A DNA stretch of 64,000 nt, taken from positions 31,064 through 95,063 of the IMG/VR virus record IMGVR_UViG_3300009166_000001; one strand, 5' to 3'. The notes beneath the pieces were generated by a model that worked only from the letters and a program-made list of their open reading frames with translations, did not search any database and was not told the origin of the DNA. The DNA is from a virus. Position numbers and translations under genes: made by a program. Each line of letters opens with the position of its first letter. Position 1 is the stretch's first letter. Shown in pieces: positions 2,473 to 63,465 of the stretch.

Positions 2473-2486
2473 TGCAATCAATTGCA
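2473..2486. repeat. Dispersed 14-bp motif, copy 1 (TGCAATCAATTGCA)
   Basis: Exact; spans the stop of the 69-aa gene; 13 bp from parS. Confidence 0.9.
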
Positions 2487-2687
2487 AGTCGCCTGCGGGA
2501 TCCACGTCTCTCCGTCGTAGACCATCAGCCGCTTCGGCTCGTCAGTCGAGAGATACCTGTCCCCCGCCTTGGGGGTCCCGAAGTGCTTCGTGGCAGCCTT
2601 GTCATCGGCCACATCGGGAACGTCGATCCCCTTTCCTCGAAGCAGCCCCGCTATCGTCTGCGCGTCCATTCTGATCTGCATCTTCAT
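2478..2687 (-). CDS. Small tail-associated protein
   Basis: 69 aa, GAGGAGG RBS; C-terminal PKAGDRYLSTDEPKRLMVYDGETW motif typical of fibre knob repeats. Confidence 0.6.
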   Translation of the reverse strand: MKMQIRMDAQTIAGLLRGKGIDVPDVADDKAATKHFGTPKAGDRYLSTDEPKRLMVYDGETWIPQATCN

Positions 2688-2699
2688 GGCTGTCCTCCT

Positions 2700-4016
2700 C
2701 TACGGATGCACCGTGTCCGACTGGTCCACCCACCCACGCCCCGTCTGGTAAGTCAGCACGCATCCAGGCCCCGGAACCGCCGGATTTCCCTGCTGTGCAT
2801 CTACCGCTTGGAACCTCATTCCCGGAGGCGGCGTCACTCCTACCGCCGTGAGCCTCTGATCCGCCCCGAACTTGGTCCCGGACGAGAATTCCAGATCGAG
2901 CATCTGCATGATCGTCATCCCGGCTGCCGACCATCCAGCCCCACCGTGCCCAGTAGGCACCCCGATCCCATCTATGGACACGTCGTCCTGGATCATGATG
3001 CACGTCGCATCTGCGTCTACTGCCCTACCGCCTGCTCCAGGTCCCCCGAACGATGCCACCCCTCGAAGGAGAGCCGTCGCACCGTTCCGCATCTTCAGGA
3101 TGTTGTGGCCATCGAGCATCATGCCCGATCCGATGAACGCACCCCCATCCACGTCCACAGCGGATCCACCACCTGCCATGTCGCATGAGAAGTTCACCTG
3201 CGACACGAATGCTTGTCCCCCACCCCTGATCACCAGGAAGTCGGTTGATCCTGCGAATCCTATTGGCGCTCCACCGCCACCGATGTACCATGCCAGCCCA
3301 CCACCATCCACGAAGATTGCCGGTCCCCCCGGCACGTATCCATCCACCCCACACGAGAGCATGATCACCTGCGATGGCCCCGTGTTGTCGATCCAGAGCC
3401 CCATCGCTCCGTTCACCCCAGCACAGACCACCTCCAGGATGAATGTCTCGCTATAGAGCACCCCCGCGTCCGCGATGAAGCGTAGGGCCGCGTCTGCCGG
3501 GTTGGCAGACGTGGACACCACATTGATGCCCTTCAGTCCGCTATTCTGTGCTGGCATCGTGAGAGTCACCCCGGACGGAGAAGACAGCCTCGTGTCCCGT
3601 CCAATGCTCCCGCCCCGCAGGTACACGAAGGGAGGCACTACCACGTTCTCCACGAAGTCATCCGGCGGTAGCTCGATCACGAACCTGTTGTTCGCCGCTG
3701 CCTCCGATGCCACCGCGTCGATGGCTGCCTGGACCGTAGAATAGTCAGCCCGGAAGGTCCTCTTCGATGGCCTCTTGATCCCCGTAATCTCCAGGAGCTT
3801 CGAGTAGTAGCCCCGGAAATACTTCTCCAGCCTGTCCGGCGTGAAGTCTACATCGATCTCGTCCCGCTCGATCTGCTTCTCGATCTCACGGAAGTCCTCG
3901 TTCGGAAAGAAGGTCCAGGGCAACGATCCTTGCCCGTAGGCGTTCAGCTTCATCTGCTGAAAAGGTGGCGGCGCGTACCGCTGATAGGCCGTCTTGTTCG
4001 TGATCCTTATCTGCAT
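2700..4016 (-). CDS. Tailspike-like protein with pectin-lyase/beta-helix fold
   Basis: 438 aa; YSTVQAAIDA...VIELPPDDFVENVVVPPFVYLRG beta-helix entry motif; Gly-rich beta repeats. Confidence 0.6.
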   Translation of the reverse strand: MQIRITNKTAYQRYAPPPFQQMKLNAYGQGSLPWTFFPNEDFREIEKQIERDEIDVDFTPDRLEKYFRGYYSKLLEITGIKRPSKRTFRADYSTVQAAIDAVASEAAANNRFVIELPPDDFVENVVVPPFVYLRGGSIGRDTRLSSPSGVTLTMPAQNSGLKGINVVSTSANPADAALRFIADAGVLYSETFILEVVCAGVNGAMGLWIDNTGPSQVIMLSCGVDGYVPGGPAIFVDGGGLAWYIGGGGAPIGFAGSTDFLVIRGGGQAFVSQVNFSCDMAGGGSAVDVDGGAFIGSGMMLDGHNILKMRNGATALLRGVASFGGPGAGGRAVDADATCIMIQDDVSIDGIGVPTGHGGAGWSAAGMTIMQMLDLEFSSGTKFGADQRLTAVGVTPPPGMRFQAVDAQQGNPAVPGPGCVLTYQTGRGWVDQSDTVHP

Positions 4017-61669: not shown

Positions 61670-61968
61670 GCTTCTCTCCTCTCGGTGAACACGATCTCGT
61701 GGCACCGTACTTCACAGCCCAACATGCGATCCGGATTCATCATCTCGCCCACCACCACGACGTAGCACCCTTCCTGGAGCCTGTCATGGCACACGTCTAC
61801 CAGCCCTGGCACGTAGATGTTGACCCGAACAATGGTCCGCTTCTTCCGATCCTTCTTCTCGGAAATCAGCGTGAAGGAACAGAACTGAAACCCCTGATCT
61901 GTCTGCCCGAACTTGATGTCCGCCGTGACGTTCCCGCTCACCGCCACGGCATTAATACCGCGTGCCAT
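61666..61968 (-). CDS. ssb: Single-stranded DNA-binding protein, OB fold only
   Basis: MARGINAVAVSGNVTAD...LQEGCYVVVVGEM; no acidic tail. Confidence 0.8.
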   Translation of the reverse strand: MARGINAVAVSGNVTADIKFGQTDQGFQFCSFTLISEKKDRKKRTIVRVNIYVPGLVDVCHDRLQEGCYVVVVGEMMNPDRMLGCEVRCHEIVFTERREA

Positions 61969-62491
61969 GCACCCTCCGCACGTACTCGGCTAGGACCCAC
62001 GCATCCCGCTGGTTGTGATCCCCCAACGCCTCGATCCGCATGACCCCTTCCAGTTCGAGCTTCCGAATGATCTTCTCGATCTTCTTCTTGTCGGCCGCCC
62101 CGTCGTCCAGCACGATCTTTCGCGCCTTCTTGCACGGAACGACCATCGGAGCCTGACCCGTCAGAAAGTATACCTGGACCTTGACGACCCCATGCAATTC
62201 AGCCAAGGCCGCCCCACCGAACTTGGCACCGAAGGCATGGCCCTCCACGACTATCGTGTAGGGATGGGTTTCCTCGATGATGGTCTTGATCCCGGCAGCG
62301 AGATTTACCAGCCGATCCAACCGCTGCTTCTCCGTCGCCTTGCTCTCCAGATCGTACCCAAGGGTCTGCGCTCTGACGATCTCCCCGGCCCCCTTCTCCA
62401 GTACCACGATCCCTGTCCCCCGCAGGGACAGGTCCAGCCCCATGACCCGGTATGGATAGTCGTACCGGAAAAGCCCTACCTGCTCGCTCAT
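61952..62491 (-). CDS. ruvC: Holliday junction resolvase RuvC-like
   Basis: VMGLDLSLRGTG, IVVEG, LAELHGVV, GAADK, HNQRDAW. Confidence 0.9.
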   Translation of the reverse strand: MSEQVGLFRYDYPYRVMGLDLSLRGTGIVVLEKGAGEIVRAQTLGYDLESKATEKQRLDRLVNLAAGIKTIIEETHPYTIVVEGHAFGAKFGGAALAELHGVVKVQVYFLTGQAPMVVPCKKARKIVLDDGAADKKKIEKIIRKLELEGVMRIEALGDHNQRDAWVLAEYVRRVHGTRY

Positions 62492-63465
62492 GCAGTGCCA
62501 GACCTATCGAGTGGATTGTCCGCGGCGAAGCACAACTCCGGGCATGAGCATCCATACTTCCATCGCCCCGCATTGTCCAGTGACTTGCAGGATTGATGAC
62601 GAGGCATCGGGGACAGTTCGTAACTGTATCCACTTGCAATCAATTGCAACGCCTTCCTGCACCGTGACACGTCCCTCGCTACCGGAGCCCATGCGTCTAG
62701 CACCACCTCTTTCGGCAGCTTGAACGTGATCATGCCCGTGTCGATGTCCAACTCGAACGGCACCTTCCGATCCTTCGGAGACGGGATCTTCACCGCGTCC
62801 ACGTCCGTCATCGGCACGTACAGGAAGCGCACCGACTCCATGATCCAGTCCCCGCAATGACAGGGATTCGAGTTCCAAGCATCGAGGTATGCCCCCGTCT
62901 GGATCTTGTGGGCGTGAAGCGGTCCCATACTCACGACCTTCGAGTAGGTTCCAATGTCGCACGTCTTGATCTCCAGGATGGACTTCTCAGCGAGCCACAG
63001 GCCGTCCATGTGCCCCGTCAGCATCAGCCCATCGTGACGCAGCGTCATCTCCACGTACCGCAGATCCTTGCCCATGCACACCGGACACTCGACTGGACGT
63101 GGCCCAAGATCCGACTGGTAGCCCGCACAAGTCGAGCATTCCCAGTACCCGTCAATGGCTCCCATCGACGGCAGGATCTCGTTCTGAAACGCCCGGTGCA
63201 TCGCCGTGCCCCGCGCCATCTTGATTGTCTCTGCCAGGGTCCTGACCTTCTTCTGGACCACGATATCGCAGACCGTAGAAGCAAGCGCCAGTAGCACCAT
63301 CTCCCGTCCACAGAAGTAAGGCAGAGAGGACATCCGGATCGGCGTGCCTACCCGGAAAATCGCCTCCTTCTCCTCCTCTATTGGCTTGTACCGACAGAAG
63401 AAGTCGGCCTTGTGCTCCGTCTGCTGCTTCTCTTCGATCTTTCGGAATGCGTCCGCGATACTCAT
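62488..63465 (-). CDS. Cas4-like PD-(D/E)XK exonuclease with zinc-ribbon insertion
   Basis: SSL..C.R, GTAMH, CSTC/CPVC, E...GHMDG...LEIKT, Q...Y, C-terminal Cys cluster. Confidence 0.8.
   Translation of the reverse strand: MSIADAFRKIEEKQQTEHKADFFCRYKPIEEEKEAIFRVGTPIRMSSLPYFCGREMVLLALASTVCDIVVQKKVRTLAETIKMARGTAMHRAFQNEILPSMGAIDGYWECSTCAGYQSDLGPRPVECPVCMGKDLRYVEMTLRHDGLMLTGHMDGLWLAEKSILEIKTCDIGTYSKVVSMGPLHAHKIQTGAYLDAWNSNPCHCGDWIMESVRFLYVPMTDVDAVKIPSPKDRKVPFELDIDTGMITFKLPKEVVLDAWAPVARDVSRCRKALQLIASGYSYELSPMPRHQSCKSLDNAGRWKYGCSCPELCFAADNPLDRSGTA
62635..62648. repeat. Dispersed 14-bp motif, copy 13
   Basis: Exact; inside the nuclease gene (LQLIA). Confidence 0.9.

Follow-up and report, generated by a model that had tools for sequence, protein, structure and literature searches.

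The 14-bp dyad TGCAAT-CA-ATTGCA recurs along the chromosome of an uncultured phage represented by the IMG/VR virus record IMGVR_UViG_3300009166_000001, of which we analyzed a stretch of 64,000 nt (bases 31064-95063 of the 95,063-bp record, hereafter the window) and, where stated, the full record. The copies form an array that is conserved in a family of phages, under apparent selection, and accompanied in every array-bearing genome compared by a homologue of one gene of this phage, P0001, whose predicted product resembles ParB-type DNA-binding domains. In our view, the motif probably serves as the operator for a sequence-specific DNA-binding protein that the phage itself encodes and that acts as a dimer; the most likely gene for it is P0001.

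Searching the window for the 14-mer with at most one mismatch returned 13 copies, eight exact and five with one mismatch, against 0.01 matches in dinucleotide shuffles. Every position listed in a first-pass annotation of this DNA was reproduced (Table 1). The full record, with a GC content of 60%, holds 23 copies, 15 of them exact and 8 with one mismatch. We then used codon-preserving shuffles, in which synonymous codons are swapped within each gene and bases are permuted within each intergenic gap, conserving every protein, the codon usage of each gene and the intergenic base composition. The shuffled records averaged 0.34 copies and never held more than 2, compared with the 23 observed. The coefficient of variation (CV) of the gaps between these 23 sites was 0.55 (P = 0.003), indicating that they are spaced more evenly than expected by chance.

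Coding sequence (CDS) takes up about 90% of the DNA, yet 16-17 of the 23 record copies fall between genes or at a gene edge. Of the window copies, four lie clearly inside a CDS (18714, 38222, 53389 and 62635) and the other nine are intergenic or at gene edges, so the initial description of a mostly intragenic motif was not borne out. The same annotation had genic copies falling in three reading frames. This does not hold for the present genome, where five of the record's six genic copies share one frame, and does hold for relatives, where all three frames are used. Copies in tiny intergenic gaps or at stop codons, and one beside a parS site, were found as described. According to our own gene calls, 122 of the 131 genes of the record are on the minus strand.

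Scanning IMG/VR with the exact 14-mer returned many multi-copy contigs. Ten such records hold 8-52 copies within one mismatch, and several of them are complete genomes of 93-99 kb. We compared 18 phage genomes in all, with GC contents of 34-62%, and in all 18 the most frequent 14-mer was a version of the same dyad. Cultured carriers of the array include Stenotrophomonas phage DLP5, Rhodobacter phage RcZahn, Vibrio phage SIO-2, and Rhizobium phages TM16 and L338C; SIO-2 and RcZahn contain about 14-15 copies within one mismatch, and DLP5 has 26-36 sites. In a literature search, the exact word and five variants appeared in no relevant paper, a general search also found nothing, and the papers on DLP5, DLP3 and ValSw3-3 do not mention the motif. 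As far as we could find, the array is undescribed.

The site is a 6-2-6 dyad, symmetric except for its 2-bp centre. TGCAAT-CA-ATTGCA is the form found in this phage, in G001, G002, G004, G005 and G007, and in DLP5, while in G043, which shares this core, the first position is C or T and the last is G or A. The form is TGCAAT-TA-ATTGCA in G034 (47 sites) and G045 (25 sites), TGCAAC-NN-GTTGCA in L338C (47 sites), TGCAAC-AT-ATTGCA in TM16, TGAAAT-CA-ATTTCA in G012, TCCAAT-CA-ATTGGA in G017, cGCAAY-CG-RTTGCg in G026, and CTGCAAC-W-GTTGCAG, with a 1-bp spacer, in G032 (30 sites). Between lineages, the half-sites vary symmetrically (TGCAAT, TGCAAC, TGAAAT, TCCAAT, cGCAAY) around a spacer of 2 or 1 bp, and in L338C neither central base is constrained, as would suit a spacer separating two half-sites. 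Symmetric change of this kind is expected of a dimer reading two identical half-sites, and also of a stem. The bases flanking the core differ by genome (C..G in G005 and G001; T..A in this phage, G007 and G002; G..C in G004, TM16 and L338C). Within genomes, however, the left and right flanks pair no more often than their independent preferences predict, with no Watson-Crick excess. The symmetric change between lineages and the lack of pairing covariation within a genome favor a dimeric protein, evolving along with its site, as the predicted reader, in line with the initial proposal. In the G032 genome (complete, 77.5 kb; L284-L287), which keeps the same arms around its 1-bp spacer, the P0001 homologue has RRA in place of RKA in a conserved helix; the shorter spacer would imply an altered dimer geometry.

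In ten genomes, non-coding DNA makes up 7-13% of the sequence and holds 29-72% of the sites (P from 2e-2 to 2e-22). The CV of the gaps is 0.48-0.71 in these genomes, compared with about 0.95 for random placement, and the even spacing is significant (P <= 0.02) in nine of them, also when the split between coding and non-coding sites is preserved in the simulation. Between 10% and 75% of genic sites lie at the same codon position in orthologues of about 45% protein identity, and the remainder have turned over. Retention of codon position together with turnover and even gaps suggests that both the word and the even coverage of the genome are selected. The comparison of relatives thus backs two earlier claims, that the array covers the whole chromosome at kilobase intervals and that selection acts on the DNA word itself.

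We next looked for genes that accompany the array. At the level of blastp, only the large terminase and P0001 are common to this phage and G001, G004, G005 and G007. An iterative profile search of 11 genomes placed P0001 and the large terminase in all 11, and a RuvC-like and a Cas4-like protein in 10 of 11 each. Only these four families are common to this phage and the ten other array-bearing genomes, and P0001 is the only DNA-binding-like protein among them. P0001 had been named as the second of two candidate binders; in support of this, homologues were found in 18 of 18 array-bearing genomes, among them DLP5 gp067 (ATS92308.1), RcZahn gp66 and SIO-2 VPEG_00074. The P0001, RuvC-like and Cas4-like genes adjoin one another here and in DLP5, RcZahn, TM16 and L338C. 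Conversely, among 50 viral records chosen solely for encoding a P0001 homologue, 28 contain the exact 14-mer, in up to 40 copies, and most of the others examined hold a variant array. P0001 belongs to phrog_17202, and the family comprises 3,484 cluster representatives at E <= 0.001.

A Pfam search with P0001 gave no match, ParB_N included, and a profile search against PDB sequences returned noise only. In the ESM Atlas the scores were at most 0.86, with clusters labelled DUF3102 and 'ParB HTH' (helix-turn-helix) as weak leads only. An AlphaFold2 model built on a 76-sequence alignment (predicted local distance difference test, pLDDT, 84) has a helical, ParB/KorB/Noc-like DNA-binding domain at residues ~20-150 and no ParB_N (CTPase) domain. 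Its best Foldseek matches of low root-mean-square deviation were Spo0J-parS, Noc-NBS and ParB-parS (probability 0.94-0.97, E 0.26-0.6). VIA-align gave Z scores of 8.2 for the ParB DNA-binding domain with parS, 8.1 for Spo0J, 6.6 (with the operator) and 5.9 for two entries of the KorB DNA-binding domain, and 4.2 for SopB. According to the model, P0001 is likely to have a ParB-like DNA-binding fold. We read the conserved C-terminal pattern, a short strand and two helices, as ribbon-helix-helix-like; structurally, this region weakly matches MatP (Z 4.7). In the conserved RKA helix, R is changed to S in the sole TCCAAT genome and K to V in the sole TGAAAT genome. N-terminal extensions of 120-220 aa, in which Lys, Ala, Pro and Glu are abundant, are present in the homologues of G004 (L145:9570-11063), RcZahn (gp66; L231), TM16 (L232) and L338C (L233), and P0001 of this phage has no such basic tail. 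In some Rhizobium phage records, homologues are labelled 'ribonuclease E/G family', probably a low-complexity artefact.

Some of the sites are associated with promoters. The record contains about 15 near-identical sigma70-type promoters of the form TTGACAAA-N-TGTTATAKT, with an extended -10; the one beside copy 31938 reads TTGACAAA...TGTTATATT, at 31958. The dyad accompanies five of these: in four it precedes the -35 box by 6-11 bp, and in one it follows the -10 box. As annotated, a TTGACA lies 6-13 bp downstream of four window copies. Across 13 genomes, 51 of 386 sites (13%) are followed on their sense side by a -35-like box at a distance of 3-12 bp, compared with 8 in the antisense control, and the modal offset between dyad and -35 box is 8-9 bp. 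The G034 genome has an early-like region at 79.5-87.4 kb (L271-L272) where about two dozen TGCAATTAATTGCA sites follow one another at distances of a few hundred bp. Over a dozen of them form motif-promoter units (13 by promoter scan), with the dyad fixed 8-9 bp upstream of the -35 box, and a terminator-like hairpin precedes several of these units. The arrangement is reminiscent of the promoter-stem-loop cassettes found in T4-type phages. Some 70 bp ahead of the gene for the P0001 homologue, DLP5 and RcZahn carry a perfectly palindromic variant, a hint that the homologue may regulate its own gene in these phages.

Other proteins were considered as readers. The first-pass annotation had also proposed an HNH-ParG fusion (137 aa); its ParG (ribbon-helix-helix) match is just above the Pfam cut-off (E 1.2e-4), it has no relative in other array-bearing genomes, and we rejected it. 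Directly upstream of its gene, at 20493, is a TTGACA-17-TAACTT promoter. A ParB_N protein was rejected as universal reader because three complete array genomes (G032, SIO-2 and RcZahn) have none.

The motif does not behave as a host site. Scanning bacterial genomes with a profile from a 5-sequence alignment of homologues led to an Acidobacteriaceae metagenome-assembled genome (G062; L302), whose 374-kb contig C20 encodes a homologue at 5-7.5 kb. The first 48 kb of this contig hold 24 sites, which are almost absent from its remaining 325 kb and from the remainder of the 4.7-Mb genome; in this one host genome, the motif is not equally dense in host DNA. The start of the contig appears to be an integrated or mis-binned phage of the array-bearing family, which hints that the family may reach beyond Proteobacteria.

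As a possible mechanism, each half of a P0001 dimer would read one TGCAAT arm through a ParB/KorB-type helix-turn-helix domain that lacks the CTPase domain. The sites would be maintained at roughly even intervals of 2-6 kb along the whole chromosome, placed in intergenic spacers where possible and otherwise written into genes. At the minority of sites just upstream of the -35 box of sigma70-type early promoters, the bound protein may control RNA polymerase. The other sites may serve as roadblocks, or as anchors that organize or silence the whole, nearly unidirectionally transcribed genome.

Several observations count against this interpretation. Most sites lie away from promoters, so transcription control cannot explain everything. 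Only 5 of the approximately 15 consensus promoters carry a site. The fold matches of P0001 have weak E-values (0.3-1) and middling Z scores, and the unrelated helical protein Raf1 scores Z 8.5 against it, which leaves the ParB-like fold suggestive only. In the RKA helix, K to T variants keep canonical arms, and the signal of covariation between residues and bases is not clean. The co-occurrence of P0001 with the array is partly phylogenetic, since the genes for the Cas4-like and RuvC-like proteins accompany the array nearly as consistently. Finally, a dyad should be neutral in orientation, yet in relatives the CA centre is biased to the sense direction (152:77 overall and 77:27 in non-coding DNA, across seven genomes), reaching 29:1 in G005. 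This bias points to an interaction with a directional process and keeps alive the recombination-target explanation discussed below. In the genome of this phage the ratio is 6:9.

By analogy, the array is most likely a genome-wide operator array of the KorB-OB or stoperator kind with a different reader architecture. KorB of the IncP-1 plasmid RK2 binds both proximal operators, which precede promoters by 4-10 bp, and distal operators, whose distance can exceed 1 kb (PMC11790492). Its palindromic operator is of similar size and is likewise dispersed over the whole replicon, with some copies 4-10 bp upstream of promoters and others far from any; the fold of its DNA-binding domain resembles the P0001 model, and global silencing is proposed in both cases. 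Unlike KorB, P0001 lacks the ParB_N CTPase domain and thus cannot by itself be a CTP-gated sliding clamp. Moreover, no KorA-like or IncC/ParA partner was found here, and the plasmid has about a dozen sites, compared with 17-52 evenly spaced and often intragenic sites on the phages.

Cluster A mycobacteriophages such as L5 and Bxb1 have 20-30 repressor sites (stoperators) genome-wide, most of them off promoters (PMC6550527). They too have tens of sites mostly away from promoters (here 23, of which 5 are beside a consensus promoter), an orientation bias with transcription (here seen in relatives) and a motif that varies with phage lineage. Stoperators differ in being asymmetric 13-bp sites bound non-cooperatively by an unrelated repressor, whereas the sites here are evenly spaced dyads, show no orientation bias in this genome and occur in phages of Gram-negative lineages. 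The Cluster A repressor gene adjoins a highly conserved cas4-family gene (PMC6550527), as the candidate binder gene does here; the shared neighbourhood may be coincidence or a functional link.

ParB-parS, Noc-NBS and SopB-sopC are 14-16-bp palindromes read by a ParB-type helix-turn-helix domain, such as the one predicted for P0001, and Spo0J-parS, ParB-parS and Noc-NBS are the top structural matches. They differ in that P0001 has no CTPase or spreading domain, in that no ParA was found in the record, and in that the sites here are far more numerous and regular; the one true parS of this genome is a separate site. Dispersed centromere (sopC) repeats are found in the plasmid-prophage N15, and Noc sites are likewise dispersed. 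MatP of E. coli recognizes matS, a dispersed 13-bp palindrome, and its dimer bridges distant sites, although it reads DNA with a different fold and organizes one macrodomain of a bacterial chromosome. The dispersed palindrome, the dimeric reader proposed here and the weak C-terminal match make MatP comparable in part.

A bolder version of the operator reading is conceivable, although we hold it only tentatively. A very widespread family of CTPase-less ParB-fold proteins may tile whole phage chromosomes through evenly spaced docking sites, as a phage 'chromatin' that silences, insulates or folds the genome and works with the adjacent Cas4-like/RuvC recombination genes. Such a system would be distinct both from the CTP-driven sliding of ParB and KorB and from monomeric stoperator roadblocks.

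The same protein-site pair could alternatively do a physical job, the sites being anchors for bridging or compaction, or for positioning or partition of the phage chromosome or plasmid-prophage, as in MatP-matS, Noc-NBS and the dispersed sopC sites of N15, with the promoter-adjacent copies incidental. Even spacing over the whole genome, late structural genes included, would suit such anchors, as would the weak MatP match of P0001 and the long lysine/alanine/proline-rich N-terminal tails of some homologues, which are typical of DNA-condensing proteins. The papers on DLP5 (PMC5834331) and DLP3 describe a temperate 'phagemid' lifestyle with heavily modified DNA, and the extrachromosomal state of DLP5 also fits. 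However, no ParA-type ATPase (PF13614) matched in the 95-kb record, which may be incomplete, the homologue of this phage lacks the basic tail, and the fixed 8-9 bp offset in G034 together with the sense-side enrichment of -35 boxes argues for a real promoter role. We regard this alternative as rather unlikely.

It is improbable, in our view, that the sites are targets of a recombination module (Cas4-like nuclease, RuvC-like resolvase, RecA and SSB) with P0001 as its targeting subunit. In this reading, programmed nicking or breakage at the sites, or Chi-like hotspot activity, would initiate recombination-dependent replication or produce T5-like site-specific nicks. The order of the Cas4-like, RuvC and binder genes is conserved in very distant phages, polar DNA-processing signals typically show an orientation bias like that of the asymmetric centre, and even spacing would suit initiation sites. 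On the other hand, the sites are dyad-symmetric with both orientations common, gene neighbourhood within phage replication modules is weak evidence, and one array genome lacks the Cas4-like gene and one the RuvC-like gene.

It is very improbable that the word works as a hairpin of RNA or of single-stranded DNA, such as a terminator, a processing site or a signal for translation, in place of a protein-bound duplex. The palindrome could make a 5-bp stem, nearly all genes run one way so that every copy is transcribed, and many copies stand between a stop codon and the next Shine-Dalgarno sequence (SD). Nevertheless, the flanks show no pairing covariation, the stem is short and AT-rich, and copies occur in both orientations and inside genes; furthermore, the symmetric change at positions 6/9 would need an impossible loop of 2 nt. 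Least credible of all is a borrowed operator of a host LacI/CcpA-type regulator. LacI-family operators do have the shape TGnAAnCNnTTnCA, and a CG-centred form, TGCAATCGATTGCA, is used by relatives. However, the same word occurs in Stenotrophomonas, Vibrio and Rhodobacter phages and an Acidobacteriaceae prophage (metagenome-bin label), and in the single host genome examined it is almost absent outside the prophage. Some variants have a 1-bp spacer or a centre other than CG (CA here), and no LacI-type HTH (PF00356) matched in the record.

PHROG matches of this phage include tail sheath, baseplate wedge, T4-type major head protein, portal, prohead protease and large terminase. With the major head protein as bait, the cultured-phage relatives were all below 30% identity, and one viral contig was also found, leaving no usable set of relatives based on the capsid; megablast of 20 kb of this phage against GenBank phages gave no match. 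A perfect chromosomal-type parS, TGTTTCACGTGAAACA, lies beside the motif copy at 2473. It is the sole copy within two mismatches in the record and was found in none of 12 other phage genomes checked. Record bases 22245-23069, which lie outside the window, encode a 274-aa ParB_N-like protein, and a motif copy is located 7 bp past the 3' end of this gene. The protein is the record's only ParB_N match and is distinct from P0001.

Table 1. Motif copies, promoters, candidate reader genes and neighbouring genes in the window (window coordinates)
Feature	Position	Strand	Remarks
Exact copy	2473..2486	+	Non-coding or gene edge; 13 bp from parS consensus at 2444-2459
Exact copy	11605..11618	+	Fills 28-bp gap between two minus-strand genes; 3 bp past stop codon, 11 bp ahead of next ATG, adjoining its SD
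Exact copy	18714..18727	-	In 1481-aa gene 14487-18932(-), 5% along its length
One-mismatch copy (TGAAAT arm)	22257..22270	-	Within 34-bp intergenic gap
Exact copy	28464..28477	-	Intergenic by our gene calls; gene model uncertain there
Exact copy	31938..31951	+	Divergent intergenic region, 6 bp upstream of -35 TTGACA of rightward promoter
Exact copy	35761..35774	+	5' edge of gene 35022-35765(-), directly downstream of -10-like TATGTT
Perfectly palindromic variant TGCAATTAATTGCA	38222..38235		Inside CDS; chief form in G034 and G045
One-mismatch copy	43558..43571	+	Abuts portal-gene stop; 13 bp upstream of sense-strand TTGACA
One-mismatch copy	51764..51777	-	9 bp upstream of consensus-promoter -35 (TTGACA 51754, minus strand)
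Exact copy	53389..53402	+	In gene 53308-54498(-), 92% along its length
One-mismatch copy	59653..59666	-	5 bp past stop; 8 bp upstream of -35 (TTGACA 59644, minus strand)
Exact copy	62635..62648	+	Inside Cas4-like exonuclease gene
Promoters TTGACAAA-N-TGTTATAKT	31958, 33204, 36928	+	
Promoters TTGACAAA-N-TGTTATAKT	20493, 51754, 55063, 58425, 58487, 59644, 60795	-	
HNH-ParG protein	20044-20457		137 aa; rejected as reader
P0001, candidate binder	60857..61669	-	270 aa; phrog_17202; no Pfam family
RuvC-like resolvase	61952..62491	-	Cas4-like/RuvC/binder block; common to 9 of 10 other genomes
Cas4-like PD-(D/E)xK exonuclease	62488..63465	-	Same block; common to 9 of 10 other genomes

If P0001 is the reader of the array, dozens of cultured and thousands of metagenomic phages would share an unnoticed system of genome-wide control or organization. 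Its cultured members would include Stenotrophomonas phages DLP5 and DLP3, the SIO-2/VHS1 group of Vibrio phages, and Rhodobacter and Rhizobium phages. Constraint on the DNA word is strong enough for it to persist across GC contents of 34-62% and inside protein-coding genes. A function would be assigned to phrog_17202, a large family of 'hypothetical' proteins, and the idea of dispersed operators, known from KorB and the stoperators, would be extended to Gram-negative phages whose reader has a ParB fold but no CTPase. Cultured hosts and a site of 14 bp would make these phages a tractable model for the selection of evenly spaced sites, and the 14-mer would serve as a simple sequence marker for the array-bearing phage group in metagenomes.

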